DNA of 64,000 nucleotides from Candidatus Iainarchaeum sp. (GCA_043817715.1 JBDRGO010000007.1:15499-79498); one strand, 5' to 3'; positions 9,193 to 31,255 are shown, counted from the stretch's first letter. Notes: a model not told the origin generated them from the letters alone. Made by a program: numbers and translations.

Positions 9193-12051
9193 TTATTTTG
9201 ATTTTAATTTAATGAAAAATTCCCTTTCAATTAATTTTTCTTTTTCCCCGTTTCCGTGAATTATTTTTGTATTTGTTTCTGATTCAATTTTTTCCTTAAA
9301 TGATGCAATGAAAGCTGAATCACTGCAGTTTAATTCCAATTCAGCTTTCTGGTCAGGGGTTAAATTTGCTTTTTTTCTTAAATCCTGAATCCTGCGCTTT
9401 AATTCCATAAATTCCCATTCATTTCTGAGTTCATCATCTGCCTCATTATTTAATGCAACAGAAATTTTTTCATCAACCTGCCTTGAAGGGAATTTCACTG
9501 CTTTCTTTGATTCAACTGCTTTTTTTACATTAACCATTTTCTGCATTAACAAAAGCGTTTTCGGAAATTCCTTTCCTGTTTTGGTTACAATAATTAATTC
9601 ATTCAACGGCCATCTCAATCGAAGCTTTAATTCTTCACGCAAACTTAATGCTGACTGAACAGCATCTTTTGCCTTAATGAATTCCTTTTCCAGTTCTTCA
9701 TCAATTAATGCATCATTTACTTTATTGAACTGAACCAAATGCACTGATTCCTCAAAATCAGATGCCTTTGCCTTTGAATAAATATATTCACTGAAATGAG
9801 GCGCAATCGGAGCCATTAATTTAACCAAGGAATAAATCACATAAGAAAAAACCCTGGATAATTCCTCCTGCGATACAGAAGAAGTTCTTTCCCTGATTAA
9901 TTTAATGTAATTCCTTGACAAATCCTCTAAAACAAATTCCTCAATTAACTGGGAAACTTTATTGTAATTGAATTTATTATAGCATTCAATGCATTCTTTT
10001 CCCAAAGAATTAATTCTGGACAAAATCCATTTGTCTTCAACAGGAAGCTTTTCCAGATTAACAGTGGGATTTTCCTCAAATTTCAAATCCAGATACATTG
10101 CACCGAAACTAATTGAATTCCATAAAATATTGAAGAAACGGTTAATGTCATCAAATGAATTCCATGAAAAAGAAATATCCTCCCCTTTCACTTCCCTTGC
10201 AATAAACCATCTCAAATAATCCCTGTTATACTTGTCAATGACTTCCTTTGGAGTAATAATGTTTCCCAAAGACTTGGACATCTTTTTTTTGCCTAAATCC
10301 AATACCATGCCATGCATGAAAATTGACTTGAACGGCTTTTTATCAAAACAAATAACTGAAGTAATTAACTGTGAATTCCACCATCCCCTGATTTGGTCTT
10401 TTCCCTCTAAATTAAAATCCGAGGGCCAGTATTTATTGAATAAATCAGCTTTGGCAGGATAACCTAATGAACCCCAAGAGCTTGCGCCTGAATCAAACCA
10501 TACATCCAGTACTTCCGGCACCCTGTTCATCTGCCCCTGGCATTTCTTGCATTTAATTTTTACTTCATCAATCCAGGGCTTATGCAAATCCAAATCACTT
10601 GAAGCAGAAGAAAATGACTGAAGTTCAGCAAGCGAACCAACAACCAATTGCTCCTTGCATCCTTCACAAACCCAAATCGGCAAAGGAGTTCCCCAATAAC
10701 GTTGCCTTGAAACAGGCCAGTCCCCTAACTGCTCTAACCAATTATTGAACCTGTCAAAGCCCCATGAAGGAACCCAATTAACTTCCTTATTTAATTCTTT
10801 AAGTCTTTCCCTTATCTCAGTTATGCGGAAAAACCACTGGTCTGAAGAAATCATTAATAAAGGGGATTTGCATCTCCAGCACACAGGATAATCATGCGTA
10901 AAAGGATGCTTAAACACCAAAGCATTATGTTTTTTTAAGTCCTCAATTATTTCCGCATCAACTGCACGGGCTTTTTTTCCCTTATATTTTCCTGCCTCTT
11001 CAAGCATTGTTCCGCTTAAATCAACAGGAGAAATTACAGGCAAACCAGCCTTTGTTCCTGCATCAAAATCCTCTTTTCCATGCCCGGGAGCAGTATGAAC
11101 CAAACCGGTTCCGGCAGTCAAATCAACATATCTTTCATTTAAAATAACTGTATGCAGATTAGGAAGCTTCGGCTTATTGAATTCTTTTTCCAATGAATCC
11201 AAATATTTTTTTCCTTCCAGTTCCGCACCCAAAAATTCTGATTCAATTGAATAACCTGCCTCAACTGCATCCATTAATTCCTGAATTCTTTCCTTTGCAA
11301 TAATCCATTTCTCTCCATTGGATAATTTTAATTTCACATAAGTGAATTTCGGATGAACCATTACCCCAGTGTTTCCAGGCAAAGTCCAAGGAGTAGTAGT
11401 CCACACAATTAAGTAAGTTTTCGGCTCATCAATTAATTCATATTTAAAATAAATTGATTCATCTGTCTGCTTTACATATTCAATTTCATTATATGCAACA
11501 GCGGTTTCACATGAAGGACAGGCATGAATCGGGTATTTTCCCAAATAAAGCAGGTTCTTTTCCTGCGCTTTCTTAAAAGTCCACCATAAAGCCTCAATAT
11601 ACTGATTATTGCAAGTAATGTAAGGATTATTCCAATCCATCCATACCCCTAAATTATCAAATTCATCATTCATTACATCAATGAATTCAGTTGCAAATTT
11701 CCTGCATTCCTTAATGAAATTCCCTACCCCGAATTTTTCAATGTCTTCCTTTGTTTTCAAGCCAAGCTTGCCTTGAACCTTATGCTCTATCGGCAAACCA
11801 TGAGTGTCATAACCAGGCTGGTCCAAGCAGTCAAAGCCCTGCATTCTTTTCATTCGAATTGAAAGGTCCTTTAAAATTTTATTCAATGCAGTGCCCATAT
11901 GAATATGCCCTGAAGCATAAGGCGGGCCGTCCATTAAGTAAAACGTTTTATTTCCTTCATGGATTTTCCTTGCTTTTCCAACAATATCCTTGCTTTTCCA
12001 GAAAGCACGGACTTCCTCTTCTTTTTCCCTTGAATAATTATCTATTTTCAT
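9193..12051 (-). CDS. ileS: Isoleucyl-tRNA synthetase
   Basis: 952 aa; NKILKD...GYD..GLPIE block shared with IleRS; KMSKS motif (KMSKSLGN); class I aaRS architecture. Confidence 0.9.
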   Translation of the reverse strand: MKIDNYSREKEEEVRAFWKSKDIVGKARKIHEGNKTFYLMDGPPYASGHIHMGTALNKILKDLSIRMKRMQGFDCLDQPGYDTHGLPIEHKVQGKLGLKTKEDIEKFGVGNFIKECRKFATEFIDVMNDEFDNLGVWMDWNNPYITCNNQYIEALWWTFKKAQEKNLLYLGKYPIHACPSCETAVAYNEIEYVKQTDESIYFKYELIDEPKTYLIVWTTTPWTLPGNTGVMVHPKFTYVKLKLSNGEKWIIAKERIQELMDAVEAGYSIESEFLGAELEGKKYLDSLEKEFNKPKLPNLHTVILNERYVDLTAGTGLVHTAPGHGKEDFDAGTKAGLPVISPVDLSGTMLEEAGKYKGKKARAVDAEIIEDLKKHNALVFKHPFTHDYPVCWRCKSPLLMISSDQWFFRITEIRERLKELNKEVNWVPSWGFDRFNNWLEQLGDWPVSRQRYWGTPLPIWVCEGCKEQLVVGSLAELQSFSSASSDLDLHKPWIDEVKIKCKKCQGQMNRVPEVLDVWFDSGASSWGSLGYPAKADLFNKYWPSDFNLEGKDQIRGWWNSQLITSVICFDKKPFKSIFMHGMVLDLGKKKMSKSLGNIITPKEVIDKYNRDYLRWFIAREVKGEDISFSWNSFDDINRFFNILWNSISFGAMYLDLKFEENPTVNLEKLPVEDKWILSRINSLGKECIECYNKFNYNKVSQLIEEFVLEDLSRNYIKLIRERTSSVSQEELSRVFSYVIYSLVKLMAPIAPHFSEYIYSKAKASDFEESVHLVQFNKVNDALIDEELEKEFIKAKDAVQSALSLREELKLRLRWPLNELIIVTKTGKEFPKTLLLMQKMVNVKKAVESKKAVKFPSRQVDEKISVALNNEADDELRNEWEFMELKRRIQDLRKKANLTPDQKAELELNCSDSAFIASFKEKIESETNTKIIHGNGEKEKLIEREFFIKLKSK

Positions 12052-12179
12052 TCTAAGCCCTTTTATAATTCATATAATATAATTAAACTCTTATAATTCA
12101 CCTTGAAAAGGAATAAAAAGGTTACAACAAAACAAAAAACAATAACTAACAAGCCACAGCAAAACAAAGAAATACAGGA

Positions 12180-13094
12180 ATGGACAATATTTCAATTACT
12201 ATGATTCTTCGCATAACTAAAGCAGTCCAAAACTTGTGGAACAGAACATTTAACAAGCCAATTAATTGGGTTGAATTTCATGCAAAAAGAACAGATGGCT
12301 GGTTTCAGACAGCAAAAAACATGTCAGAAAACCATGAAAAATTCATTCAGGCATTTAAGCCAAAAAAAGCATCTGAATCATTCAGCATTGAAATGATTAA
12401 CACAAAACATGAATCTGATTATGCTTTGGCATTAATTCCTGCACAAGCAATTGATTTCACTGAATCAATGCTTCCGCAATTAAAACTTGGAATGGATAAA
12501 AAAAGCAGAAGCATTATTGTTGAAGCAATCCAGTGCTCTGAAAAGGAACTGGCAAAAAAAATCAATGAAGAATTAGGTCAAAAAGGGCCGTGGGCTAATT
12601 TTCTTTTAAGGGAACTGGAAGATTATTCCAAAAAAAATAGATATGCACAAATTAAAATCCGCAAGCCTGAAACGCTTCACAATTACCATAAACCAATTAT
12701 TGCCCTGCCAGAAAAAGAAAGAAGAAAAGTTTACAGAAGACCCAAAGGAATAATTTCCAGATTAAAAAAAGCAGAAGAAAGTTCAGGAAAAAAAAATAAA
12801 AAAGTTGGTTTATCTCAAGAAGAAGCAGAAGCATTAAATGGAAATGAGACTATTAAAAAATTCATTACCGCAAGAAAGGAAGAAAACCAAACACATTTTG
12901 AATTAGACCCAAAAGTGATGAATGAATACAAATCAGAAAATAAACTGGAGAATGCATTGCTAGTCCTGATTTATTCGCATGCTGAAGAAAAAAGAAGAAA
13001 AGCAGTTCAGGAATCCATGCGCAAGCTTTATTATGGCACAGCAAGAGGATGCAATTATACGGAAGAAAGGGACTATTTTGTAAAAGAATTATAA
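12180..13094 (+). CDS. Hypothetical lysine-rich protein
   Basis: 304-aa ORF with normal codon usage; no recognisable domain. Confidence 0.3.
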   Translation: MDNISITMILRITKAVQNLWNRTFNKPINWVEFHAKRTDGWFQTAKNMSENHEKFIQAFKPKKASESFSIEMINTKHESDYALALIPAQAIDFTESMLPQLKLGMDKKSRSIIVEAIQCSEKELAKKINEELGQKGPWANFLLRELEDYSKKNRYAQIKIRKPETLHNYHKPIIALPEKERRKVYRRPKGIISRLKKAEESSGKKNKKVGLSQEEAEALNGNETIKKFITARKEENQTHFELDPKVMNEYKSENKLENALLVLIYSHAEEKRRKAVQESMRKLYYGTARGCNYTEERDYFVKEL

Positions 13095-13135
13095 TTGACC
13101 GAAAAGATTTAATAAAAAATAAGGAATAGTTTAAT

Positions 13136-14173
13136 ATGATTAAATTAATCAGCATTAAAACGATTCATGAAAGAATTCACAGAAACGAGGGCAATGTTCT
13201 CCTGACAGCCGCCCAAATCCAAAAACGCTATCCAAATGAAATACAACTACAAAAAGGAAACAGCTATGCCATAAGCAGGCATGTGCCCGAAGACATAGCA
13301 AATAAATTCATTGAAGAACAAATAGCGCTTAAAGAAGGAATCACGCATAATGATTTATGCAAAGAACTCGGCATTACTCCAAATTCAAAAAAAATGCCTC
13401 TCTTTAAAAACCAGCGGAGAAAAGCAGGAAGAATTATTTATTATAGCCAAGAAGATGCAGAAAAAATAAGAAAATATTATACAAGAAGATATGGCTGGCG
13501 CACCACTGATGAATTAGCAAAATTTTTAGGCGTGGATAAAACCGCAATCCTTATATTTTTTGAAAACCCTGAAAATGCCCAAAAATATTCCCATTTTATT
13601 AGAAGATATCCTAAAAAAAATGTTTTCAACCCTGAATTTTTTGAAGCTTATACCGGGGGAAACCGAAAAGAAGCATCTCAATTAGAAGAAGAAATAACTG
13701 AATATTACAATAATTTCGTAACAACAAGAACAAGAAATACACGCAAAAAAGGAATTGATAAAATTACAGCCCAGGATATTGAAGAAGAAATTAAACTGCT
13801 GAAAAAAAAATATTCCGCAAAAACAAGGGATGTTTCTTTCCTTGACAAGCTTGAAGAAGAAGACGAAAGCATAGACTCATTAGATGAAAGACTGCAAAAA
13901 GGCAACAAAAGAAAGCCGAAAACAAGGCCAGAAAGATTAAGACTCTATGCATTAATTCATTTTTGCAAAAGAAAAAGGCTTTTTGCAACTGAAGAAAAAT
14001 TAATTCAGATAGCAGTAACCTTTGGAATATTAAAAAACGACAGAGAATTCAAAACCATTATAACTGAATTAATTGATTTAGGCGCAATAAGCAAATCAAG
14101 AAAAGTAAATAAAAAAGCAACACGTGAACCGGCAAACAGACCATGGAAAGTATCCGAAAGATTTTTAGAATAA
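13136..14173 (+). CDS. Hypothetical protein with multiple HTH-like segments
   Basis: 345 aa; segments such as DELAKFLGVDKTAIL resemble HTH; K/R-rich. Confidence 0.3.
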   Translation: MIKLISIKTIHERIHRNEGNVLLTAAQIQKRYPNEIQLQKGNSYAISRHVPEDIANKFIEEQIALKEGITHNDLCKELGITPNSKKMPLFKNQRRKAGRIIYYSQEDAEKIRKYYTRRYGWRTTDELAKFLGVDKTAILIFFENPENAQKYSHFIRRYPKKNVFNPEFFEAYTGGNRKEASQLEEEITEYYNNFVTTRTRNTRKKGIDKITAQDIEEEIKLLKKKYSAKTRDVSFLDKLEEEDESIDSLDERLQKGNKRKPKTRPERLRLYALIHFCKRKRLFATEEKLIQIAVTFGILKNDREFKTIITELIDLGAISKSRKVNKKATREPANRPWKVSERFLE

Positions 14174-14236
14174 AAAAAAATTGATAAATCAAGCTACATC
14201 CGGCAAATTCTCTGATGCAAAATGGCAAGGAAAATT

Positions 14237-14311
14237 TGGAGATAGGCGGATTTGAACCGCCGACCCTTGGTGTATAAGACCAATGCTCTAGCCAGGCTGA
14301 GCTATACCTCC
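14237..14311 (-). tRNA. tRNA-Ile (anticodon UAU)
   Basis: The reverse complement folds as a canonical cloverleaf: 7-bp acceptor stem, GGCGG-TTCAAAT-CCGCC T-arm, anticodon stem UUGGU/ACCAA with loop CUUAUAC. No encoded CCA. Confidence 0.8.
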
Positions 14312-14367
14312 TTAAACTTTAATATTAAAAATCAACAAAAGTTTAAAAACAAAACAATTGCAGGGAA

Positions 14368-14748
14368 TTACTGTATGCCAGATTTTTCTGAAGGTTTTTC
14401 TTCCCTTGGAATTATTTCTTTGCTCAACATATTTTCAGTGTTTGCTTCAATGCTTTCCTGTATTTCAGTAATTTTTCCAAACCTTCCAATGTTTATCCTT
14501 AAAGAGTTTTTGAACAAAGAAGAAAAGCCGTTTTCCAGAGAATAATTTTTTCCTGCCAAAACCTGGCTTATTGTGTCATCCCATAAAGTCAGCAAAACCA
14601 TTCCAGAATCATCAGCGATTTTTGCTTCGCATACTTTATGATTTTTACTGTCAAGCTTTGACTGAACATCCCTTGATTCAGTTACTTCAATTGCTTTAAA
14701 TTTTAATTCAATTTTTTTCATATAAGGCCTTAATTCATTTATTTTCAT
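14368..14748 (-). CDS. OB-fold ssDNA-binding protein (SSB/RPA-like)
   Basis: 126 aa. LRPYMKKIELKFKAIEVTESRDVQSK...AKIADDSGMVLLTLWDD pattern matches crenarchaeal-type SSB OB-folds. Confidence 0.6.
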   Translation of the reverse strand: MKINELRPYMKKIELKFKAIEVTESRDVQSKLDSKNHKVCEAKIADDSGMVLLTLWDDTISQVLAGKNYSLENGFSSLFKNSLRINIGRFGKITEIQESIEANTENMLSKEIIPREEKPSEKSGIQ

Positions 14749-14902: not shown

Positions 14903-15571
14903 TTATTTCAAATCTTTTTTCATATCATCAACCAATTGCCTTGCTTCGTCCTTGAATGACAATCCAAAGCTTATTCCGACAATTATTGCAGCCATGAACA
15001 TGAATGTGCCGATTGCAATAAGGAACGCTGTTTCAAGCAATGCAACATCAAAGCCTGCATTTTTTAAACCAAGAACTGTTGCCAAAAACACAGTGATGAT
15101 ATAAACTGCTTTTGAAAGCACTTTCTTTTTCTTAAATGAAGTCTGGTTAATTTTGTTTTCAATTATTTTTGCTACAATCAAGCCCAAAACAACAAGAACA
15201 AGCGCCCCAAGAAGCTTTAACATCATGCTGTAAAGAGTTAATGAAAACACTTCAATTGTTTTGAATGGAATGAAACCTAAAGCCAGTGCAAATACAAAGA
15301 AAAATGTATACCACTTGACAAAGCTTCCAACAACGCTTGATAAAGGCAGCCCTCCGACAGCGCCAACCAAATTATGGTCTTTTGCCCAGTCATCAAGCTT
15401 CAATATATTAAGCACTTTGCTGACAATGCTTTTTAGAATTACACCCAAAAACCAGCCGACAATTATTACAATTATTGCCGCAACAAACCAGAAGCTCAAT
15501 CCTAAAAACTTCGGAACTTCAGCTGCAATAAACTCATTCAGTCCAATCTCAAACGGATTTGATATACCCAT
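14903..15571 (-). CDS. Integral membrane protein
   Basis: 222 aa with about 5 hydrophobic helices; an oligo-T run plus hairpin follows the stop. Confidence 0.4.
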   Translation of the reverse strand: MGISNPFEIGLNEFIAAEVPKFLGLSFWFVAAIIVIIVGWFLGVILKSIVSKVLNILKLDDWAKDHNLVGAVGGLPLSSVVGSFVKWYTFFFVFALALGFIPFKTIEVFSLTLYSMMLKLLGALVLVVLGLIVAKIIENKINQTSFKKKKVLSKAVYIITVFLATVLGLKNAGFDVALLETAFLIAIGTFMFMAAIIVGISFGLSFKDEARQLVDDMKKDLK

Positions 15572-15710: not shown

Positions 15711-16256
15711 TTACGTTTTAATTAATTCATTTATTTTTTCAGACAAATCTTTTTTTGTTCCGCTATTCAGTAATTCATAATCAGCTAAAGAAATTAATTC
15801 AGTTAATCCTTTTTTTTGTGAGTCAATTTTGTCTCTTGAAAAAAATTCTTCTTTATTTTGAGGGTCAATATTGCTTTTTCTTTCAAATCTTTCATTTTGC
15901 TTAGCAGTGACTGCGACTAATTTTGCTTCAGGAAAAACCTCTTTAACTGAATAAAATTCTTCTTTGCTTCTTGCACCAACCAAAACCAAATTTGTTTCTT
16001 TTTCTTTATTTTCAGCTCTAAATGCTTTAACTTCCTTCAGTAATTCAATTGCAACTGCATTCATTCCTTTTAGTGCACGAAGTTCATCGCCTAATTTAAC
16101 TAAATTCATTTTAGTTGGCTCCAGATTTTTTTCTTTTGCCATTTTTACAAGAACATCAGAAAAAACAAATTTTTTGAAATTAAATTCTTTAATCAAATAA
16201 TCTGCTGCAGTGTCTTTTCCTGAACGAGCAAATCCAACTAATACAATGCATTGCAT
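15711..16256 (-). CDS. P-loop nucleotide kinase, UPF0200-like (predicted dephospho-CoA/adenylate-type kinase)
   Basis: Start moved to the internal Met MQCIVLVGFARSGKDT (P-loop); C-terminal LADYELLNSG resembles the UPF0200 archaeal kinase family. Confidence 0.5.
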   Translation of the reverse strand: MQCIVLVGFARSGKDTAADYLIKEFNFKKFVFSDVLVKMAKEKNLEPTKMNLVKLGDELRALKGMNAVAIELLKEVKAFRAENKEKETNLVLVGARSKEEFYSVKEVFPEAKLVAVTAKQNERFERKSNIDPQNKEEFFSRDKIDSQKKGLTELISLADYELLNSGTKKDLSEKINELIKT

Positions 16257-16392
16257 GAAGAAAATAAAGGAAGAAGAAATTAATAAATGTAATTCATAAG
16301 GCAATTGTTCAATACAAAAAACACATGTTCAATTAAATGAACAATAAAAAATAAAAAAAAGAAGCAGATAAAAAAAAGTAAAGGAATGATTA

Positions 16393-18048
16393 CTACATCA
16401 TTCCATCCATTCCGCCCATTCCTGGAGGCATTCCTCCAGGTGGTCCTGAGCTTCTGCTTGTTCCTGCAACAATATCGTCAATGCGCAACAGCATTTCAGC
16501 CACTTCTGTTGCTGAAGTTACTGCCTGTTTTTTGATTGCAAGCGGTTCAATTACTTTCAATGCTTTCATGTCAGCAACTTTTCCTTTGTATACATCAATC
16601 CCCATGTATTTGCCTGTTTTTCCTTGGTGCTTTGAACGCAAATCAACTAATGCATCAATTGCATCCATTCCAGCTGATTCAGCCAGGGTTCTGGGAATTA
16701 TTTCAAGTGTTTCAGAAAACAATTCAATTGCCAGCTGCTCTCTTCCGCCGACTGTTTTTGCATAATCCTTTAATTTCAGTGAAACTTCCATTTCGCTTGA
16801 GCCTCCTCCTGAAACAACTTTGCCTGATTTAATTGAAGAAGTAACTGCTCCGATTGCATCAACCATTGCCCTTTCTGCTTCATCAATTACATGCTCTGTT
16901 CCTCCACGGATTAAAATTGTGACTGCTTTAGGATTTTTGCACCCTTCAACGAAAACCATTTGGTCTCCTGAAATTTTTTTCTCTGAAACCATTCCGGCTG
17001 TCCCTAAATGCTCTTTGCTTAATCCTTCCAAACGAGAAACAACTTTTCCGCCTGTTGCTTTAGCCAATGCATCCATGTCAGATTTTTTTACTCTTCTTAC
17101 TGCCATTATTCCTTCCTGTGCCAAAAAATGCTGTGCCATGTCATCAATTCCTTTCTGGCAAAAAATAACATTTGCGCCTGAATCCTTAACACGTGAAACC
17201 ATTTTCTGAAGCATTTTTTCTTCCTGATCCAAAAAAGCCTCTAACTGCATCGGGTCAGAAATCTGGATTTTTGTATCTGTTTCAGGGGATTTGATTTCCA
17301 AAGCAGAATCAATTAAGGCAATTTTTGCTTTCTCTAATTTTTTAGGCATTCCAGTATGGACAATTTCTTTGTCAATAACCAATCCTGAAATCATTTCTGA
17401 TTCAGCTAATGAAGCGCCCTGCTTTTTTTCCAGTTTAATCATGTCCTTGTCAATCACAGTTGCATTGTTTTCTGTTTCTGCAACCTGCATTACTGCTTTC
17501 ACAACCAAGTCAGCCAGTTCTTCTGCTGATTCAGCTGCTTTTCCAGTCATTGAAGTCAAGGCAATTTCCTTTAATGCCTTTTTGTCTTTTGCATCAATTT
17601 CATCACTTATTTCTTCAAAAAATTCAGCTGCTTTTTTTGCAGCCATTCTATATCCTTTAATTATTAATGAAGGATGTATTCCGTCATCCAATAATTTTTC
17701 TGCTTTTCCAAGCAATCCGCCTGCCAAAACAACTGCTGTTGTTGTTCCGTCCCCTACTTCATTGTCCTGTGTTTTAGCCAAATCAACCATCATTTTTCCC
17801 GCAGGATGGTCAATGCTCATTTCACTTAAAATTGTTGCACCGTCATTGGAAATTGTTACATCGCCTAATTCGTCAACAATCATTTTATCCATTCCCTTTG
17901 GACCCAAAGTGGATTTAACTGCATTAGCCACTGCCTTAGCAATTAAAATATTTATTCTTTGGGCATCCCTTCCCAAAACTCTTTTTGAGCCATCGCTCAA
18001 AAACATTACTTGCTGGTTCATTTGATCATTTTGTGCCATAAAAATCAC
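16393..18048 (-). CDS. ths: Thermosome subunit (group II chaperonin)
   Basis: 551 aa; GPKGMDKM, VTISNDGATIL and GGGSSEMEVS blocks; C-terminal GGMPPGMGGMDGMM tail. Confidence 0.95.
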   Translation of the reverse strand: MIFMAQNDQMNQQVMFLSDGSKRVLGRDAQRINILIAKAVANAVKSTLGPKGMDKMIVDELGDVTISNDGATILSEMSIDHPAGKMMVDLAKTQDNEVGDGTTTAVVLAGGLLGKAEKLLDDGIHPSLIIKGYRMAAKKAAEFFEEISDEIDAKDKKALKEIALTSMTGKAAESAEELADLVVKAVMQVAETENNATVIDKDMIKLEKKQGASLAESEMISGLVIDKEIVHTGMPKKLEKAKIALIDSALEIKSPETDTKIQISDPMQLEAFLDQEEKMLQKMVSRVKDSGANVIFCQKGIDDMAQHFLAQEGIMAVRRVKKSDMDALAKATGGKVVSRLEGLSKEHLGTAGMVSEKKISGDQMVFVEGCKNPKAVTILIRGGTEHVIDEAERAMVDAIGAVTSSIKSGKVVSGGGSSEMEVSLKLKDYAKTVGGREQLAIELFSETLEIIPRTLAESAGMDAIDALVDLRSKHQGKTGKYMGIDVYKGKVADMKALKVIEPLAIKKQAVTSATEVAEMLLRIDDIVAGTSRSSGPPGGMPPGMGGMDGMM

Positions 18049-18179: not shown

Positions 18180-21143
18180 TTAATTTAAATAAATATAGAA
18201 TGCTTCTGAATCCACTTTAAAGAATTCCCCTTGTGAATTGGTTGTTTCCTGAATGAATGAAGGGTGTGAACCTGTTTTTAATTGCTGATAACTTGTTCCT
18301 TGAGTATTAATTAATGCATCATATGCATAATAACTTAAGTTTGAATTAGTGAATGAACCAATTGGCTGACCGTCCTGAGTATCAATATAGTATTTGTTGT
18401 TTTCTTGAATGAAATGCGCTACAAGATAATGTGCAGGATCAGTAAATGAATTTGTAATATCAAAATCTGAATCCTTTGGAGTATAATAAAGCGCGTCAAT
18501 TACTCCGTCTTCAATTCCTGAAGCATTTGGCAGAGAAGTTCCTGAAAAATTAATTGAAGAATTTTTAATGCTTAATGACTGCACTGCAAGCATTAACCAT
18601 AGCCTGTTCAGCATTTTTGCAGGCTTCACTGCATAATATATTGGGTAATCATTTTGCCCCTGCAATCTCAAGCCATACAATGACGGGGTTGCATCAGAAA
18701 TCATGTCCTCTGAAAAAATCATTTTTCCATATGAATTATCAGATGAATCTCCTTTGGTGTTGTAACTCAGTGTTCCTGTTGAATTATTTTTTCTGAATTC
18801 AATTACTCCGTCAACTGAAACCTGCAGTGAATTGCCTGGCTGAATTGAATTCAAAATAAACGGCATTCCATCAGCCAGAAAAGTATTTCCAGCCAAAACT
18901 ATTTGTGTTCCGATTCCTTCAATATTAATTTCTGCTGAATTGAAATCAACTGAATTAATTGTCCATTTTCTTTCATTAATGTAATCCTGATTATTGACTG
19001 TTAAATTATAATCTCTCATGAATGAACTGCTTGAGCCATAATTCACTTTAAACCAGATTGTTTTTGAATCAAATTCAAATGTTGAGCCTTCTTCTGAATC
19101 ATCCAGTTCCAATGCAAAAGGAATTCTGTGAACAATATTCTGGCTGTCTTTGAATTCAATTCCTGAAGAAGTTGAATTGCTTGAATCATAATCTCCTAAT
19201 TTCATTGTAACAGGAATTACCTGAATTGAAACTGTTCCAGTGTTGCTTCCCTGCACGCCGTCCAATGAATGATAAGTGAATGAATCTGTTCCGGCAAATC
19301 CGGCGAAAGGAGTGTATGTTGCAGTGCATGCAGTTAAACCAACATTTCCATGTGCAGGAGGCGATAAAATCAGGCAATTTAAAGCAGTGCCGTCAGGGTC
19401 AAATGTATTCAGGTCAAAAACAAGGTAATTGTTTTCACTTACAGATAAATTCATGTCATATGCAATCGGCACTGCATTTGCCAGAACAGTTAAATCAACC
19501 CTTACTGAATCACTGATATATTGCCCGTCTGAAACTTTGTAAGTGAAATAATCTGTTCCTGAATAATTGTATACAGGATGATAATTTGCAGTGCAGTTAT
19601 TTATTGATAAAGTCCCATGCGAAACAGAAGAATTAACCGAACAGGTTAATGCATCCCCGTCAGCATCAAATACATTCAATGCAAAAGCAATCGGAGTGGC
19701 TTTATTCACTGTAACTGACTGAGGATAACCAACAGGGGAACTGCTGCCCTGACTAACAAGTATTGTTACCTGAACAGGCCCAACAGAATACTGATTGTCA
19801 GATACAGAATAAGTAAAATAATCTGTTCCTGAAAAATTTGCATCAGGAGAATAAGTTGCCCCGCATCCAGTGGCCCAAGTATATGAATCAATGATTAGTG
19901 TTCCATGCTGAGGAGAAGAATTTACTGAACAGTTAACCAAATCATTTTCTGAATCATGCACATCCAAATCAAAAACCAATGCCATGTTTTTGTTTGCCTG
20001 CTTTGATTGAACAGAAGCAGTCGGCGGATTGTTTGCATTCAAAGTAGTGACAGTAATTGTTATTTCTGCTGTATCGCTGTCTGCTTTTCCGTCGCTTGCA
20101 TAATATTCGATTAAATCAGTTCCTGAAAAATTTGCATCAGGAACATAAGTTAAAACACAATTCTGAATTGCTGATGTTCCATGCAATGAATTTCTTTTAA
20201 TAAAACAAGTTAATGCATCATTGTCCGAATCAGATGCATTAAGCGTTAAAGTTCTTGAATTATTAATTGCTGTCGATAAATTCATTGAATTAGCAATTGG
20301 CTTATGGTTCGGAGAAACAACAGCAATTGTTATTGTAGCTAATCCGCTGTTGTTTTTTCCGTCAAATGCATAATAGTTAACGAAGTCAGCCCCAAGATAA
20401 CTTATATTCGGAGTGTAGAAAATTACGCAATTCTGAATTACTGCGGTTCCATGCTCAGGCCCTGAATCAATAAAGCAGTTTAAATCATTGTTTTCAGGAT
20501 CTGAAACAATTAAAGCAATTGTTCTAGTTTGAGCTTTATAAGTAACTGGATCGAAACCTGCGCCATAAATTATTCTGCTGTTTTCAGCAGTAATTGCCTG
20601 ATTTTGGGCTTCAGGCGGGAAATTTATTTCTTCCTGCACTGGCGAAACCAAATTGTTTCCTATTGCATCTGTTCCAAGCAGTCCTGAAAAATTTGTTTTA
20701 ATGAAATCAGTTACTGCAAAATTGTTTCCCATAGGGTTGGAAAGAATAAAGTAAAGCGAAGCCGAGCCAAGAATAAACATAAATCCTAAAAGCAATACTG
20801 AAGCAGATAAAATCAATACAACCTGAATCGGGATTTTCTGGGTGTTTAAAAGCTTTTTTCCTTTTTCAGTCAATTCATAGTATTTCCATTTTCTTCCTTC
20901 ATCAATCTGATGGATTAACTGGCTTTCCTCCAAAAGCTCTAAATGCCTTTTCATGCTTGCAAGAGAAATATTCCTTTTGGCAGCAAGTTCAGTCAAAGTA
21001 TGCCTTCGTTCATATAATGACTTAAGTATTTCAGTTCTTGCCTCTGAAGAAAGCGCCTTGAATTCATCTGAAGAAATAGTTAATTGCTCTTGTTCCATCA
21101 AATCAAATACCCAGTTAGTAATAAATATAAGCATTCCCTTCAA
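18180..21143 (-). CDS. Membrane-anchored winged-helix (ArsR-like) protein with large extracellular Ig-like/cadherin-like repeat domain
   Basis: The N-terminal 100 aa carry a wHTH (RTEILKSLYERRHTLTELAAKRNISLASMKRHLELLEESQLIHQ). A single TM helix follows (VVLILSASVLLLGFMFILGSASL). Downstream, ~95-aa modules recur, each with a conserved DxDxD...C...HGT...YTP...FxGTDxFTY signature typical of Ig-like adhesin repeats. Confidence 0.6.
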   Translation of the reverse strand: MKGMLIFITNWVFDLMEQEQLTISSDEFKALSSEARTEILKSLYERRHTLTELAAKRNISLASMKRHLELLEESQLIHQIDEGRKWKYYELTEKGKKLLNTQKIPIQVVLILSASVLLLGFMFILGSASLYFILSNPMGNNFAVTDFIKTNFSGLLGTDAIGNNLVSPVQEEINFPPEAQNQAITAENSRIIYGAGFDPVTYKAQTRTIALIVSDPENNDLNCFIDSGPEHGTAVIQNCVIFYTPNISYLGADFVNYYAFDGKNNSGLATITIAVVSPNHKPIANSMNLSTAINNSRTLTLNASDSDNDALTCFIKRNSLHGTSAIQNCVLTYVPDANFSGTDLIEYYASDGKADSDTAEITITVTTLNANNPPTASVQSKQANKNMALVFDLDVHDSENDLVNCSVNSSPQHGTLIIDSYTWATGCGATYSPDANFSGTDYFTYSVSDNQYSVGPVQVTILVSQGSSSPVGYPQSVTVNKATPIAFALNVFDADGDALTCSVNSSVSHGTLSINNCTANYHPVYNYSGTDYFTYKVSDGQYISDSVRVDLTVLANAVPIAYDMNLSVSENNYLVFDLNTFDPDGTALNCLILSPPAHGNVGLTACTATYTPFAGFAGTDSFTYHSLDGVQGSNTGTVSIQVIPVTMKLGDYDSSNSTSSGIEFKDSQNIVHRIPFALELDDSEEGSTFEFDSKTIWFKVNYGSSSSFMRDYNLTVNNQDYINERKWTINSVDFNSAEINIEGIGTQIVLAGNTFLADGMPFILNSIQPGNSLQVSVDGVIEFRKNNSTGTLSYNTKGDSSDNSYGKMIFSEDMISDATPSLYGLRLQGQNDYPIYYAVKPAKMLNRLWLMLAVQSLSIKNSSINFSGTSLPNASGIEDGVIDALYYTPKDSDFDITNSFTDPAHYLVAHFIQENNKYYIDTQDGQPIGSFTNSNLSYYAYDALINTQGTSYQQLKTGSHPSFIQETTNSQGEFFKVDSEAFYIYLN

Positions 21144-21152
21144 TTAAAAAAG

Positions 21153-21440
21153 ATTTTTTTAACAAAAACCAGGCTAACAAAAAACAAAGGTTTAAAAAGG
21201 AAGAGAAAAAACAGGGTTTTTTAAGAAATTTAAGTAAAAAAATAATAATTATAAATGCATTTAATTGAAAGGGCAAGAAATATAAACAGTTTCCTGTAAA
21301 ATAATCATTCAACAGTAGTAAAAAATACTTGCTAAGGGGGAAAATTTATGAAAAGTAAATTAATGTATGCATCTTTTTTAATTATTTTAATGGTATTGCT
21401 TGTTTCGGTTTTTGCAGTAAAGGAAATCACTGCAAAGGAA
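21153..21440 (+). repeat. Duplicated 5' region (copy A): upstream sequence plus signal-peptide coding region
   Basis: Near-identical to 22829-23096 (AGATTTTTTTAACAAAAACCAGGCTAACAAAAAACAAAGGTTTAAAAA plus identical signal peptide codons). Confidence 0.8.
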
Positions 21441-22643
21441 GCAATCAGTCCAAAATCAATTGTGGTTTGTGGAGACACAATAACAGAGGACACGAATTTA
21501 ACAAACGACTTAATTGATTGTGGTGGAAGAGGATTAATTATTGAAGGAAATAATATTACTTTGGATTGCCAGGACCATTTAATTGATGGAACTGAAATCA
21601 GCAACTCAAAAGGAATTTATTTGAACACCGTAACAGGAACCACTGTTGAAAATTGTAGAATAAGTGAATTCGATTTTGGAATTTATTTAGAGAATTCAAA
21701 TTATAATACAATAATTAATAACAATTCATATAACAACGGATATTTTGGAATTTTTTTATGGCAATCACACGGCAACGCTTTAATAGACAATAATACATCC
21801 AATAACGACTCGGACGGAATTTATTTTGATTCATCAAACAGTAACTTAATAGCAAACCATAATACAAACAACAACGAAAATTGCGGAATATATTTAGGAA
21901 ATTCAAGAAACAACTCAGTGACAAACTCTGTTGCTAATGAAAACGATTGGGCTGGGATTCTTTTAAATTATACCTCAAACAACAACGAGATAACAAACAA
22001 TGTGTTTCAGAATAACAACGAAGGAGTTCGCACAATGAATTCCATGCAAAACATTTTTTATGAAAACATCTTTTCAAACAATACAGAATATAATGCTTAT
22101 GAATCAATGGGCACAAATGACTGGAACAACACAACAACCGGAAATTATTGGGGTGATTTTAATTCAAACCCAGGATATCCAACACACTACGAAATTCCAG
22201 GAAACGGAAACGGAGTTGATTACTTTCCTGACTGGGAATTTGGCCGCAAGGCTGATTTAAATATAACTTTTTTAAAGGCTTCAGTCAGTTCAGTACCATC
22301 AACCCAACAAATAAAAGTGACTTATTTCTTTACAATAAAAAACATTGGAATTATTGATTCAGGAGATTTTTATACAGGAATATTAATTGAAGAAGAAAAT
22401 CTTTCTCCAAGCCATATTTCAAACACTACACCAAAAGAAGCTTATGCTCCAAATAATTCAAATCATGTAGCAAAAGAAGCTTATACTTCAAATCTTGCAC
22501 CGACAGAATCAATAACCATTATGCGGGAAGCAATTCTTGACAACGGAAGTTATACAATAACTGCAACCGCTGACAACAGAATGCAGGTTGATGAATTAAA
22601 TGAATCAAATAACACTGCAACAATCCATATAGAAGAAAATTAA
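21348..22643 (+). CDS. Secreted parallel beta-helix (NosD-like) protein with C-terminal CARDB-like domain
   Basis: Signal peptide MKSKLMYASFLIILMVLLVSVFA; CGDTITEDTNL...GLIIEGNNITLDCQ cap followed by repeated N-rich PbH1-type coils; GNYWGDFNSNPGYPTHYEIPGNGNGVDYFP block; C-terminal ELNESNNTATI CARDB-like signature. Confidence 0.7.
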   Translation: MKSKLMYASFLIILMVLLVSVFAVKEITAKEAISPKSIVVCGDTITEDTNLTNDLIDCGGRGLIIEGNNITLDCQDHLIDGTEISNSKGIYLNTVTGTTVENCRISEFDFGIYLENSNYNTIINNNSYNNGYFGIFLWQSHGNALIDNNTSNNDSDGIYFDSSNSNLIANHNTNNNENCGIYLGNSRNNSVTNSVANENDWAGILLNYTSNNNEITNNVFQNNNEGVRTMNSMQNIFYENIFSNNTEYNAYESMGTNDWNNTTTGNYWGDFNSNPGYPTHYEIPGNGNGVDYFPDWEFGRKADLNITFLKASVSSVPSTQQIKVTYFFTIKNIGIIDSGDFYTGILIEEENLSPSHISNTTPKEAYAPNNSNHVAKEAYTSNLAPTESITIMREAILDNGSYTITATADNRMQVDELNESNNTATIHIEEN

Positions 22644-22828: not shown

Positions 22829-23096
22829 AAGATTTTTTTAACAAAAACCAGGCTAACAAAAAACAAAGGTTTAAAAATAAGGAAAAAAAGCCAGATTTTT
22901 TAAGAAATTTAATTGAAAAGATACTACTTATAAATTGTTTTACGGAAAATAATCCTTTAACAGTAGTAAAAAAATCACTTATTAATTGGGGGAAGGGACT
23001 TTTATGAAAAATAAATTAATGTATGCATCTTTTTTAATTATTTTAATGGTATTGCTTGTTTCGGTTTTTGCAGTAAAAGGAATGGAATCAATTCCT
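22829..23096 (+). repeat. Duplicated 5' region (copy B)
   Basis: See copy A at 21153-21440. Confidence 0.8.
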
Positions 23097-26000
23097 AAAA
23101 TGAAAACTGAAAGCAGGGAGTCATTTGAACAAAGCACTGTAAAAGAATCAAGTGAAAGTAGTGCTTCAACAAAATCAGGAACTTCAAATATTTCTTCTTC
23201 TACCAGTACTAAAACTGAAAAACCTTTAACCCCAAAAAAACCAATTAAAGAACCTGAAGTTAAACCAAAAAATATTACTGAATATCCTTTTGTTTCAAAT
23301 GTAAATATTGAACCTTATTATGCTAACTCCGGACCAACACTTAATGCTACTTGTACTGATTATGATGGAACAATTGCAAATGCTGAATTTAACTTAAATA
23401 ATTTATCATTTAATTATTCAATGAATGCAGTTGATGGTTTATTTGATGAATCAATTGAAGAAGTAATTGCTTCAGTTCCTACTTTTAATGTAAGCCAAGG
23501 AATAAATGATGGAAATGTTTTTTGCATTGACAATGAAGGAAATGAATCACTTCCTAATACAAACTCTGTTTTTGAATTCTTTTATGATACATTTATACCA
23601 TCCAGCATGAGACAATCAATGCCTCCAAATGGATTGAATGAATGGTTTATTTCTGAAGTTGATGTCGAATTGTTATTTGTAGATGTGGCTCCAAGTTCAG
23701 GACGTAAAGGACTTTATTACTGTCTGGACCAAACAAATTCCTGTTCTCCAAATATTGATGAAAACGGAATGGTTTCAATCACTGATGAAGGAATAAATTA
23801 TTTAAGAGTTTATTCTGAAGACAATGCAGGAAACCAATCCAATACTTATCCTGCCATATATAAAATTGATTTAACTAATCCTTATGGACAAGAAATTTAT
23901 TTTACTAGTGCAAACAATTACGGAGATGTAACTGTTTCATTAAATCCAGGAACAGATGATGTTTCTGATGTGAATTACTGTCAATTAAGATGGGAAGAAG
24001 AAATTCCTTGGTTACCTGTTGGATTAGAAACCAGTGCTTCATATAATTATTCTCCTGGAACACATACAGCTTTTTATAAATGCTTTGATGAAGCAGGAAG
24101 AGAAAGCGAAACAGTTTCAGATACAATAATTATTACTGATAATAATCAATTTGATTTATTCATTGATAATGGTTACATTCCTAATCCTCCTCTTTTTGAT
24201 GATGAAAATGTTTTCATTGTAGTCACTCTCCATAATACAGGGGACATAGCTAGATTAGTGCCTAGTGAAACATATCTTGATAATGAACTTCAAGGCACAC
24301 CACATTATCAATGGTATTTTCCATCAGGAACATCAGATCTTTGGATTGGATTTGAACCCCTAGAAGCCGGAGACCATAATTTAACAATAATTACAGACAG
24401 CACTAATGATTATAATGAATCAAATGAAGAAAACAATGTATTCGAATTTATTTTCAATGTAATGGCTCACACACAACCAGAAATTCAATGCGGAGACACA
24501 ATAACAGAAGACACGAATTTGAATAATGATTTATTGAATTGTAATGAACATGGATTAATTATTGGAGCGAATAATATTACTTTAGACTGCCGGGGGCATG
24601 TAATTGACGGAAACAACAGATATATTCAGCATGGAATTTACTTAAACTACAAGAACGGAAACACTGTCAAAAACTGCAATATACAACAATTTAGCTCCGG
24701 AATTTCATTAATCCGAAGTTCAAATAATACTCTTACAAATAACAACCTAAACAATAACGAGTATGGAATCCAAATTCAGAACGCGAGCAATAATACATTA
24801 ACGAATAACAATGCAAACAATAATTATTCTGGAATTCAATTAAGTGACTCAAACAGAAATACATTAACAGACAATAATGCAAACAACAATTATTCCGGAA
24901 TCAGGCTTCAATTTACAAGCAATAACACATTAACGAATAATACCGCAAATGATAATAACAGCATTGGAATTTATTTAAGCTTTTCAGGCAATAATACTTT
25001 AACAAACAATAATGCAAACAACAATTATTCCGGAATTCAACTAAGTGACTCTAACTATAATACCTTCACAAGCAATATTATAAAAAATAACTCTAATTAC
25101 GGAGTGGAATTTTTTGAGTATTATTTCTCCATTTTACCACACAACATTTTTTCAGGCAATTTTTTCATAGACAATTATATTAATGCCCGTGAAGACGTAA
25201 ATCACCTCTTCAACGACTGGAATTCCGGTTTAACCGGAAACTACTGGAGCGACTTCAATAACGATAACCCAGGATATCCAAATTACTATGAAATCCCTGG
25301 ACCAGGAAACGGAATTGATTATCATCCAACAGGACCAACACAAGAAATCCAATGCGGAGATACAATAACAGAAGACACGAATTTGAATAATGAGTTACTG
25401 AATTGTACTGGAAATGGATTAATTATTGATGCAAATAATATTACATTGGATTGTCAAGGACATTTAATTGATGGAGAAGGAAGCAATTACGGAATCACTA
25501 TTAGTAACAAACATGGAATTACCATTCAAAACTGTAACATAAGGGCATTTGATGACGGAATAAGATTATATTCCAGCAACAACAATTTCATTCATAATAA
25601 CAATATTATAAACACAAACATAGCAATAGATGTTTACTCATCCAGTACAAACACAATTTCCAACAATACCATTCCAAACAACCTTGACGGAATATACCTT
25701 CGCTACTCCAGCAACAACAATCTTGTATCAAACAATACAATTGTAAACAACCAGCAAGGATTATATTTGCTTGAAAACTCAAAATATAATACTTTTTGGA
25801 ATAACACATTGCTTAACAATATTATAAATGCATCTGAAGCCCATAGTTCAGCAAGCCCTAACGACTGGAATTCAGGAACTGTTGGAAACTACTGGAGTGA
25901 TTTTAACACAAACCCAGGATATCCTAATTACTATGAAATCACTGGACCAGGACAAGGAATTGATTGGCATCCAACAGGACCAACACAAGAAATCCAATGC

Positions 26001-29994: not shown

Positions 29995-30231
29995 ATGTTT
30001 GAATGTGAGGCAAAATTAAAAACATGGGGCAACAGCATTGGCGTTGTGCTTCCTAAAAAAGAGCTTGAAAAGGAAAATCTTTCTGCTGACAGCAAAGTCA
30101 GAGTGGTTGTTTTTCCTGCAAAAAAGCTTACTGTAGGGGATATTTTTGGAAAGCTTGAAAACTGGAAAAAGCCAGCCAGCAGAATAATGAAAGAAATTGA
30201 CGAGGAATTGGACAGCAAATTCTTTAAGTGA
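29995..30231 (+). CDS. AbrB/MazE-family antitoxin (SpoVT_AbrB fold)
   Basis: 78 aa; KTWGNSIGVVLPKK swapped-hairpin motif. Confidence 0.7.
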   Translation: MFECEAKLKTWGNSIGVVLPKKELEKENLSADSKVRVVVFPAKKLTVGDIFGKLENWKKPASRIMKEIDEELDSKFFK

Positions 30232-30235
30232 TAAA

Positions 30236-30598
30236 ATGAAATATTTTTTCGATACTTATGCGTTAGTCGAAATTGTTGAAAAAAACCCGAATTATGTAAA
30301 ATTCATAAAAGAAGAAATTGTTACAGGCATTCTTAACATTGGAGAATTTTATTATTCGCTCCTGAAAGATTACGATGAAAGCACTGCGCAAAACTGGCTG
30401 AAGATTTTTGGGCAGACAATAATTCCTTTAAGCACAGACACAGCCATCAATGCAATGAAATTCAAATTCCTAAACAGGAAAAAAAACTTTTCTTTTGTTG
30501 ACTGCTGCAGTTACATGCAAGCAAAAGAAAACAACTTGATTTTCTTAACCGGCGACAAGGAATTCAAAGGAATGCCTAATGTGGAATTCGTGAAATGA
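30236..30598 (+). CDS. vapC: PIN-domain toxin (VapC-like)
   Basis: Start at MKYFFDTYALVEIV 4 nt after the antitoxin stop. The leading D of the PIN acidic set is in that motif; the conserved C-terminal acidic residue lies in LTGDKEF. Confidence 0.75.
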   Translation: MKYFFDTYALVEIVEKNPNYVKFIKEEIVTGILNIGEFYYSLLKDYDESTAQNWLKIFGQTIIPLSTDTAINAMKFKFLNRKKNFSFVDCCSYMQAKENNLIFLTGDKEFKGMPNVEFVK

Positions 30599-30657: not shown

Positions 30658-30927
30658 TTGGTGATTTTTTTGGAAGCTGAAGTTGTTGTAAGAAAATGGG
30701 GCAATTCTCTTGGGTTGACTTTGCCTAAAAATCTTGTTGAAACCCAGAAAATAAGGGAAAATGACCGCATATCCATTCAGGTGGAGAAAAATAAGCTGTT
30801 AAGAGTAGGTGACATTTTCGGGCTTGCGAAAGGCTGGAAATTTGACACTCAAAAATTCAAAGACCAGGCAAGGAGGGAGGAACTTGAACGGGAAAGAAAA
30901 ATTTCTGGATTCTTACGCAATCATTGA
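30658..30927 (+). CDS. AbrB/MazE-family antitoxin, second copy
   Basis: 89 aa; RKWGNSLGLTLPKN; paralog of 29995-30231. Confidence 0.7.
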   Translation: MVIFLEAEVVVRKWGNSLGLTLPKNLVETQKIRENDRISIQVEKNKLLRVGDIFGLAKGWKFDTQKFKDQARREELERERKISGFLRNH

Positions 30928-31255
30928 AATAATCAAGGAAAACCAGAATTACAAACCATTTAAGGAAGCAGTTGCAGTAACAGGCAAAGCCAACTTGATT
31001 GAAGTCGCGTACAGTCTGCTTCAGGATTTCCAAAAAGAAACCGCATTAATTATATTGGGTTCCCTGAAAATCAAAACCCTTGAAATAGAGGACAACCAGA
31101 TAACAAAAATCGCTGTTTTCAAAAAAGAACACGCCAAAAAAAAATTCTCTTACATTGACTGCATAGGTTATATCCTGGCAAAAGAAAACGGAATAGCTTT
31201 CGTCACAGGCGACAAGGAATTTGAAGGAATGCCTAATGTGGAATTCGTGAAATGA
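30884..31255 (+). CDS. vapC: PIN-domain toxin (VapC-like), second copy
   Basis: Paralog of 30236-30598; the last 45 nt are identical. No in-frame ATG at the homologous position. Proposed TTG start at 30884 sits 5 nt after a GGAGGGAGG RBS and overlaps the antitoxin. Confidence 0.6.
   Translation: MNGKEKFLDSYAIIEIIKENQNYKPFKEAVAVTGKANLIEVAYSLLQDFQKETALIILGSLKIKTLEIEDNQITKIAVFKKEHAKKKFSYIDCIGYILAKENGIAFVTGDKEFEGMPNVEFVK

Follow-up and report, generated by a model that had tools for sequence, protein, structure and literature searches.

A tRNA-Ile(UAU) gene upstream of ileS as a probable AUA decoder in Candidatus Iainarchaeota

Introduction

How does an archaeon read the isoleucine codon AUA when the anticodon for it is encoded directly as UAU? 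The question is raised by a 64,000-nucleotide stretch of DNA from Candidatus Iainarchaeum sp. (GCA_043817715.1, JBDRGO010000007.1:15499-79498; hereafter the window), which carries a tRNA-Ile gene with a UAU anticodon on its minus strand. AUA (Ile) and AUG (Met) are hard to tell apart, and their separation has long counted among the weak points of the genetic code. According to textbooks and to reviews up to 2024, bacteria and archaea use lysidine or agmatidine for AUA, and UAU tRNAs are rare curiosities (PMC11938285). The archaeal tRNA-Ile2(CAU) does the same job as the tRNA studied here, but it has an encoded C34, needs TiaS and agmatine, and behaves as a tRNA-Met if unmodified, whereas the tRNA of the window encodes U34 directly.

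We conclude that the gene is probably a functional AUA-decoding tRNA-Ile of an Iainarchaeota archaeon. AUA is heavily used in the open reading frames (ORFs) of the window (349 of 19,011 codons, equivalent to 18.4 per 1000 and 21.7% of Ile codons, about equal to AUG), so that a dedicated AUA reader is needed.

Results

Identity, structure and host of the tRNA gene

ARAGORN identified a single tRNA in the window, a tRNA-Ile with the anticodon tat at 14237-14311 of the minus strand. The Rfam scan agreed: in the same interval, RF00005 was matched from position 1 to position 71 of its 71 positions, with E = 6e-13 and a score of 68.9 bits, where the gathering score is 29. Rfam detected no other RNA family in the 64 kb. 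The transcript, GGAGGUAUAGCUCAGCCUGGCUAGAGCAUUGGUCUUAUACACCAAGGGUCGGCGGUUCAAAUCCGCCUAUCUCCA, adopts a cloverleaf as its minimum-free-energy fold, in which the anticodon loop, CUUAUAC, has 7 nt. An earlier description of the window from its sequence alone (the sequence-only reading) had proposed a canonically folded tRNA-Ile(UAU) with this loop as the only tRNA present and had placed ileS 2 kb away. These statements are borne out, and the strand, which had not been given, is minus for both genes. The anticodon loop contains U33, U34-A35-U36 and A37. Among the other positions, U8, A14, G15/C48, G18G19, G53-C61 and the T-loop UUCAAAU can be read directly, and G5-U68 is the single wobble pair. The gene, its flanks and ileS are as follows:

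14237-14311, minus strand: tRNA-Ile gene, anticodon UAU; 75 nt, intron-less, CCA not encoded, discriminator A73 (ARAGORN, Rfam RF00005, minimum-free-energy cloverleaf, covariation)
14312-14350, minus strand: A/T-rich upstream stretch with TATA-like tracts, TTTTTAAA at about -39 to -32 and TTTTTAATATTAAA at about -21 to -8 (direct reading)
14231-14234 and 14219-14222 (region 14219-14234), minus strand: two TTTT runs just 3' of the tRNA (direct reading)
9193-12051, minus strand: ileS, isoleucyl-tRNA synthetase (IleRS), 952 aa (TIGR00392, 869 bits), 2185 nt beyond the tRNA 3' end

The A/T-rich upstream stretch is a possible archaeal promoter for the tRNA, in a window with a G+C content of about 32%. 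The TTTT runs likely act as an oligo-T termination signal, and T-run or hairpin elements are similarly placed 3' of the tRNA in several relatives. Because of these two runs and of an antisense insertion that separates the tRNA from ileS (see below), the tRNA is probably transcribed as a separate unit in the window.

The archaeal origin assumed in the sequence-only reading is well founded, as the window encodes a thermosome subunit (16393-18048), an RPA-type single-stranded DNA-binding protein (SSB, 14368-14748) and a tRNA-splicing endonuclease (37820-38338). The best database relatives of the IleRS are 55-68% identical, and all those with a source name derive from Candidatus Diapherotrites or Iainarchaeum, which NCBI places in the Archaea, Nanobdellati (DPANN), Candidatus Iainarchaeota. 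Judged by these relatives, the lineage of the window is Candidatus Iainarchaeota (Diapherotrites, DPANN), and not one of the two groups, Nanoarchaeota and Korarchaeota, that had been named as carriers. The nearest contig, GCA_054474055.1 (L241), has the gene order beyond ileS in common with the window: a KaiC-like ATPase, a CMP-kinase-like protein, panB, an aminotransferase IV, a transaldolase, a split transketolase and a histidine phosphatase.

Distribution of tRNA-Ile(UAU)

The literature supports the view that archaeal tRNA-Ile(UAU) is rare. The surveys consulted name only Nanoarchaeum equitans and Korarchaeum cryptofilum, which account for 2 of 217 archaeal genomes in a tRNAscan-SE 2.0 survey (PMC8450103) and for the same 2 genomes in a survey of 167 (PMC6000648). 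Taniguchi et al. (2013) connected UAU tRNAs to the loss of tiaS or tilS (PMC3575796), and archaea without tiaS have a tRNA-Ile with a TAT anticodon that replaces the one with CAT (PMC3575796, PMC8450103). The tRNA of the window probably belongs to this known class, the UAU-type AUA decoders of tiaS-less archaea. Like the tRNA-Ile(UAU) of N. equitans and K. cryptofilum (“tRNA-Ile3” in tRNAscan-SE 2.0), it is a genomically encoded UAU tRNA for AUA. N. equitans is also a DPANN archaeon but belongs to a different phylum, and the K. cryptofilum gene has an intron, whereas the window gene has none. The linkage to ileS described below was noted for the window lineage. A literature search found no relevant paper joining DPANN to TiaS, agmatidine, tRNAIle or the AUA codon, and the supplements of DPANN comparative-genomics papers contained no TiaS, COG1571 or K06932 entries.

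We scanned one genome per GTDB species with a degenerate tRNA-Ile(TAT) pattern (at least 120 loci, L001-L120), and metagenome contigs with a second pattern that has an archaeal-type D-loop (at least 120 loci, L121-L240). Both patterns fix the D stem, the anticodon loop and the T loop, and the results record presence, not frequency. Intron-containing genes such as the one in L242 are missed by both, and L241, with GCTTAG in the D stem, is missed by the metagenome pattern.

The archaeal matches in the genome scan came from at least 17 metagenome-assembled genomes (MAGs) of Micrarchaeota, Iainarchaeota/Diapherotrites and unclassified archaea. About 100 of the at least 120 loci were bacterial, mostly from Patescibacteria, the candidate phyla radiation (CPR); this count, taken among the matches listed, is far above the 17 bacterial genomes reported previously (PMC8450103). 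Bacterial carriers among the matches listed include Saccharibacteria, Paceibacterota, Nomurabacteria and others, and also some Chloroflexota and uncultured gammaproteobacterial MAGs. In the metagenome scan, at least 41 of the at least 120 loci carry a thermosome, SSB or IleRS gene related to that of the window. The tRNAs closest to that of the window, among the matches listed, are identical at 67-69 of 75 positions; they belong to MAGs of Iainarchaeum/Diapherotrites and to metagenome contigs that match these.

With at least 17 archaeal MAGs, about 100 or more bacterial MAGs and at least 41 Iainarchaeota-type metagenome loci, tRNA-Ile(UAU) extends beyond the few lineages to which the sequence-only reading had limited its reported occurrence. 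The argument from rarity mirrors the literature, not the sequence databases. As a lineage marker the gene is weak, since the trait spans DPANN and CPR. Instead, tRNA-Ile(UAU) is an ordinary trait of Iainarchaeota that is widespread in DPANN and CPR, and it marks a decoding strategy. For annotation, tRNA-Ile(UAU) need not be treated as anomalous in DPANN genomes, nor should a missing tRNA-Ile2(CAU) count against their completeness. The present analysis contributes three things: how widely the trait occurs in DPANN and CPR, its conserved placement upstream of ileS, and the conservation of the base-34 pocket in the partner enzyme.

Several loci from the scans deserve separate mention. In L242 (9751-9915), an Iainarchaeota tRNA-Ile(UAU) gene lies 86 nt upstream of ileS and is interrupted at the canonical 37/38 site by an intron of about 90 nt. 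This gene was found by Rfam alone (48.6 bits) and missed by ARAGORN and both patterns, and the position of its intron parallels K. cryptofilum and eukaryotic tRNA-Ile(UAU). The “archaeal-type” D-loop pattern was not strictly archaeal, since L142, L233, L168 and L226 are CCA-encoding bacterial tRNAs or tRNA arrays. L168 (144-9248) and L226 (4850-12231) are dense arrays of 19-23 tRNA genes, with tRNA-Ile(UAU) and several CAU tRNAs; L168 also has a tRNA with a CUA anticodon, called Pyl by ARAGORN. Both arrays look bacterial or phage-derived, not Iainarchaeotal.

Selection on the gene

Covariation was analyzed in an alignment of 28 distinct Iainarchaeota-type tRNA-Ile(UAU) sequences. The stem cells of this alignment are paired in 98.8% of cases, 13 of the 21 stem pairs have changes on both sides, and the UAU anticodon is present throughout. 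The covariation score was 0.58, compared with 0.19 in shuffles (0 of 500 reached the observed value) and at most 0.13 with the pairing partners slid. The retrieval pattern had fixed the D stem and the loops and left the acceptor, anticodon and T stems free, and the covariation sits in those three stems. Compensatory differences in the acceptor and T stems are also found in the tRNA of L241, the closest relative. The tRNA-Ile(UAU) gene is real, is under tRNA-type selection and looks functional.

Two patterns in the anticodon arm were noted in addition. C32 is invariant across L121-L240, even though the pattern permitted U. Position 38 changes together with the pair that closes the loop, C38 accompanying U31-A39 (37 sequences) and A38 accompanying U31-G39 (50 sequences), a coupling that might tune the strength of wobble reading.

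The neighbouring isoleucyl-tRNA synthetase

The IleRS encoded in the window scored 530 bits against the IleRS2 structure 1ILE, 527-528.5 bits against Priestia megaterium IleRS2 (8C9D, 528.5), and 465 bits against Staphylococcus aureus IleRS1 (1FFY). For comparison, the true IleRS2 of L170 scores 754 against IleRS2 and 305 against IleRS1. The C-terminus is of type 2 (DUF5915 match), without an INS subdomain and without a zinc-binding domain. The profile of the C-terminal 170 residues aligns to residues 920-999 (ARD3) of P. megaterium IleRS2 and skips the INS subdomain. A recently proposed “IleRS-A” clade combines a catalytic core nearer to IleRS1 with a type-2 (ARD3) C-terminus (bioRxiv 10.64898/2026.02.03.703510). 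Judged by these scores, the window enzyme would fit this description, with close IleRS2 and IleRS1 scores and a type-2 C-terminus. Its HIGH signature reads HMGT, with Thr for the second His (11890-11901, minus strand, residues about 50-53), and H-[MLI]-G-T is present in 116 of 120 IleRS homologues. This differs from the near-absolute HIGH (HxGH) conservation described for the related catalytic-core type (bioRxiv 10.64898/2026.02.03.703510).

Residues Q889, R892, K893 and L897 of the window enzyme align with Q961, R964, K965 and L969 of P. megaterium IleRS2, and the Q-x-x-R-K motif is found in 116 of the 120 homologues. These pocket residues contact base 34, and the Arg has a role in reading U34 or pseudouridine (pseudoU) 34 (PMC11685878, bioRxiv 10.64898/2026.02.03.703510). 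In yeast IleRS, Arg999 forms hydrogen bonds with a carbonyl or imine acceptor common to G, I, U, pseudoU and agmatidine, and C34 is not bound (PMC11685878). The archaeal-type IleRS would thus be pre-adapted to a tRNA-Ile with U34, because the Arg of the base-34 pocket is conserved and accepts U. Presumably the same Arg pocket also recognizes agmatidine in tRNA-Ile2(CAU), through its N4-imine.

The tRNA-Ile2(UAU) of Mycoplasma mobile is a parallel case, in which the UAU tRNA replaces a modified-C system in a reduced genome (PMC3575796). The bacterial IleRS1 of M. mobile reads base 34 through its zinc-binding domain and needed a Trp-to-Arg change, whereas the window enzyme has a type-2 C-terminus in which the Arg is already present. 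An adaptation like the M. mobile W905R was considered for the window enzyme and rejected because of this different C-terminal type. The comparison suggests that a switch to UAU is easy in archaea, where the type-2 Arg pocket accepts U34, and harder in bacteria with IleRS1.

Reading of AUA and discrimination against AUG

We propose that the tRNA is transcribed alone in the window, would be processed by RNase P and RNase Z, and would receive its CCA post-transcriptionally. The IleRS encoded 2.2 kb downstream would then charge it with isoleucine. In its Gln-x-x-Arg-Lys-x-x-x-Leu pocket, the Arg is expected to donate hydrogen bonds to O6 of G or I, O4 of U or pseudoU, or the N4-imine of agmatidine, and to reject C34. 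U34 could be accepted without any bacterial-style change of the IleRS, because the pocket Arg already reads the carbonyl or imine acceptor of base 34. On the ribosome, U34 would pair with the A of AUA, and the tRNA would substitute for the route via tRNA-Ile2(CAU) and TiaS/agmatidine; both TiaS and tRNA-Ile2(CAU) should then be absent from the remaining genome.

Four points weigh against this account. A haloarchaeal tRNA-Ile with U34 is poorly charged by the haloarchaeal IleRS and, with 5-cyanomethyluridine (cnm5U), binds AUG as well as AUA (PMC3895270); because such mutants misread AUG and charge poorly, extra adaptations are to be expected here. The check for tiaS and tRNA-Ile2(CAU) covers 64 kb of a genome assumed to be about 1 Mb and says almost nothing about the rest. 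The isoleucine identity is putative, being assigned from the anticodon, from A73 and from the likeness to L117, where the UAU tRNA has its acceptor stem and T arm in common with a co-resident tRNA-Ile(GAU). Finally, the prevalence figures are lower bounds from biased, pattern-restricted samples.

As to the first point, our guess, made with low confidence, is that AUG misreading may be avoided by an un- or lightly modified U34 in a specialised loop, consisting of the invariant C32, C38 with U31-A39, and presumably N6-threonylcarbamoyladenosine (t6A) at position 37. Competition by Met-tRNA and possibly the ribosome might help, as in M. mobile, which is the model for an unmodified U34 that reads AUA, with AUG rejected via properties of the ribosome and the tRNA. 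A bulky xm5U appears less likely.

An alternative that concerns only this decoding step is that U34 becomes a restrictive modified base (pseudouridine, a 2-thio derivative or another) that separates AUA from AUG. We regard this as a real contender, although the odds are somewhat against it. Yeast tRNA-Ile(pseudoU-A-pseudoU) is charged 40-fold better than the unmodified transcript (PMC11685878), and the cnm5U acquired by haloarchaeal U34 mutants, which then misread AUG, illustrates that uncontrolled U34 chemistry is costly (PMC3895270). L242 and K. cryptofilum have an intron at 37/38, which in eukaryotes directs formation of pseudoU34/36, but the window gene and most relatives are intron-less, so that an intron-dependent route is not general. 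The window encodes no candidate modification enzyme, and in both M. mobile and a Bacillus subtilis suppressor strain an unmodified U34 causes no significant misreading of AUG (PMC3575796, PMC3895270).

The eukaryotic cytoplasmic tRNA-Ile(UAU), matured to pseudoU-A-pseudoU, has the same anticodon and is served by an IleRS of the same C-terminal class with the Arg/Gln pocket. Its modification is directed by an intron, whereas the window gene is a continuous 75 nt, and eukaryotes additionally read AUA with an IAU tRNA. Archaea are not known to possess the Pus1 route, by which eukaryotes form pseudoU34.

A phylum with routine UAU decoding is a natural system for studying what co-evolves to make a U34 decoder safe (loop context, U34 chemistry, IleRS, ribosome), because mutating base 34 to U in a haloarchaeon brings AUG misreading and poor charging (PMC3895270).

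The second point concerns a different alternative, in which the UAU tRNA redundantly duplicates the decoding of AUA by a tRNA-Ile2(CAU) and TiaS encoded elsewhere in the genome, similar to the eukaryotic pair of IAU and pseudoU-A-pseudoU tRNAs. At 18.4 AUA per 1000 codons two decoders would not be absurd, the inspection was limited to the 64-kb window, and the arrays in L168 and L226 carry tRNA-Ile(UAU) and several CAU tRNAs on one contig. However, these arrays appear to be bacterial or phage arrays, not Iainarchaeota. The Pfam families of TiaS had no match in the 51 window ORFs of at least 120 aa, and the N-terminal GIDDTDS-type motif of TiaS, checked on PDB 3AMT, 4RVZ and 3U02, was absent from the six frames of the window and from 243 loci. 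Overall, neither the window nor the related loci (1.68 Mb) gave a TiaS signal. Small DPANN genomes also tend to lose redundant functions. In all published archaeal cases, N. equitans and K. cryptofilum included, and in 17 bacterial genomes, the UAU tRNA is present instead of tRNA-Ile2(CAU) and tiaS or tilS (PMC3575796, PMC8450103). We therefore consider redundancy unlikely. On precedent, tRNA-Ile(UAU) is likely to be the sole AUA decoder of this genome.

Linkage to ileS

Linkage was determined by a tblastn search of the fetched loci with the window proteins. Nine GTDB MAGs have the tRNA just upstream of ileS on the same strand; the gap measures 950 nt in L091, 2.8 kb in L086 and about 43-360 nt in the other seven. 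The metagenome loci that bear marker genes and extend for at least 500 nt 3' of the tRNA number 29, and ileS follows on the same strand in 28 of these and is on the opposite strand in none. It is likewise downstream of the tRNA in L241 and L242. The tRNA-Ile(UAU) gene is accordingly a stable part of the chromosome and not a stray. Most of the metagenome gaps measure 30-400 nt, and in one subclade the gap is about 1.5 kb with a membrane-protein gene in between. As controls, ileS was near tRNA-Ile(UAU) in just 2 of about 103 bacterial loci and in 0 of 6 Micrarchaeota loci.

The recurrent block is thermosome, P-loop kinase-like protein, in some loci a mechanosensitive-channel-like protein, SSB, tRNA-Ile(UAU) and ileS, and the genes beyond ileS vary among loci. 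The SSB occupies the same position in L066, L108, L091, L031, L117 and many metagenome loci. In the window, the remaining members of this region are:

14368-14748, minus strand: RPA/SSB-type OB-fold protein, the conserved upstream neighbour of the tRNA (PF21473, NF005049)
14903-15571, minus strand: mechanosensitive-channel-like protein (Pfam, NCBIfam)
15711-16304, minus strand: P-loop kinase-like protein (Pfam, NCBIfam)
16393-18048, minus strand: thermosome subunit (Pfam, NCBIfam)
13136-14173, plus strand: orphan ORF, 345 aa, basic, antisense to the tRNA and ileS
12180-13094, plus strand: orphan ORF, 304 aa, second gene of the same insertion

The thermosome - SSB - tRNA-Ile(UAU) - ileS block would thus be a feature of the phylum, split in the window by the two orphan ORFs. 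Neither ORF has a Pfam, NCBIfam or PHROGs family or a tblastn match in any fetched related locus. Searches against the PDB returned nothing significant, with weak helix-turn-helix-like matches for 13136-14173 (E >= 0.035). The two ORFs are a lineage-specific insertion, because the tRNA adjoins ileS in relatives and the gap in L241 is 306 nt without an ORF. By the same comparison, the 2.2-kb spacing in the window is a degraded, derived form of the conserved arrangement.

That the tRNA is itself a recent horizontal or mobile-element arrival, or is decaying, as marked by this insertion, is close to refuted: tRNA genes are common integration sites, the orphan ORFs lie directly 3' of the tRNA, and tRNA-Ile(UAU) also occurs in probable phage or bacterial tRNA arrays, but the tRNA is found at this position between SSB and ileS even in relatives with an IleRS just 46-68% identical, has undergone compensatory evolution, and is retained in L241, from which the insertion, itself without an integrase or a repeat of the tRNA 3' end, is absent. 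A search of 11900-14700 for att-like repeats or a duplicate of the tRNA 3' end gave low-complexity A-rich matches alone. Recent mobile-element cargo was rejected on the conserved position, the compensatory changes and the lack of an integrase or repeat.

Unlike in the window, where the tRNA is probably transcribed alone, co-transcription of tRNA and ileS is plausible in part of the phylum, because some spacers, such as that of L240 (about 23 nt, GC-rich), have neither the length nor the base composition for a second promoter. One could go further and regard the tRNA-Ile(UAU)-ileS pair as a selectively maintained decoding module, and UAU decoding of AUA as perhaps the norm across DPANN and CPR; we offer this as a speculation that is more probably wrong than right by a wide measure. 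If it were true, the tRNA, at 23-100 nt upstream of ileS in many Iainarchaeota, would be excised from the ileS leader. The supply of the AUA decoder would be coupled to that of the synthetase, and IleRS could bind its own precursor transcript, allowing feedback control. UAU decoding as the norm in DPANN and CPR would represent a convergent simplification in ultra-small cells, against the textbook rule of a modified cytidine in prokaryotes.

An analogy is provided by pylT-pylS, in which a tRNA gene adjoins its cognate synthetase gene and a decoding function is inherited as a unit. While pylTS is a transferable, code-expanding cassette, the tRNA-Ile(UAU)-ileS pairing may be vertical synteny in one phylum, for which only a replacement of ileS beside a constant tRNA is seen. 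The linkage in any case offers a concrete gene pair for joint cloning and testing.

The replacement of ileS in situ is apparent from a comparison of L235 (9022-10399) and L215 (2515-5482), which have the same gene order and IleRS proteins only about 30-37% identical, although their thermosome proteins are 89% identical and their tRNA-Ile(UAU) genes are identical at 73 of 75 positions. A clear IleRS2 (754 bits to PDB 8C8U, HYGH motif) is encoded in L235, L170, L210 and L165, and an IleRS-A-like enzyme in L215 and the window. Judging from these loci, the tRNA-ileS pairing outlasted a swap of the IleRS type in close relatives.

Other features of the window

The window also encodes a cluster of large predicted surface proteins that is typical of DPANN cell-surface equipment:

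18180-21143, minus strand: predicted surface protein, 987 aa, N-terminal winged-helix followed by Big_9 and cadherin-like repeats
21348-22643, plus strand: predicted surface protein, 431 aa, NosD/beta-helix/CARDB
22986-28295, plus strand: predicted surface protein, 1769 aa, six NosD/beta-helix units

Three PIN-domain proteins, likely toxins, are encoded on the plus strand within 7 kb (30197-30598, 30809-31255 and 36398-36808). Long ORFs at 43081-47034 (minus strand, 1317 aa) and 49704-52154 (plus strand, 816 aa), and several shorter ones nearby, had no Pfam family.

Two genes may reflect exchange with other lineages. The S-adenosylmethionine synthetase at 47040-48269 (minus strand) is of the bacterial/eukaryotic MetK type (Pfam S-AdoMet_synt_N/M/C), whereas archaea usually have a different S-adenosylmethionine synthetase family, making inter-domain transfer possible. 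The Vut_1/YhhQ-family transporter at 35023-35718 (plus strand), putatively for uptake of a queuosine precursor or vitamin, has a homologue with 53% identity over 210 aa on L109, a contig from CPR (Doudnabacteria), and is a candidate case of gene sharing between DPANN and CPR.

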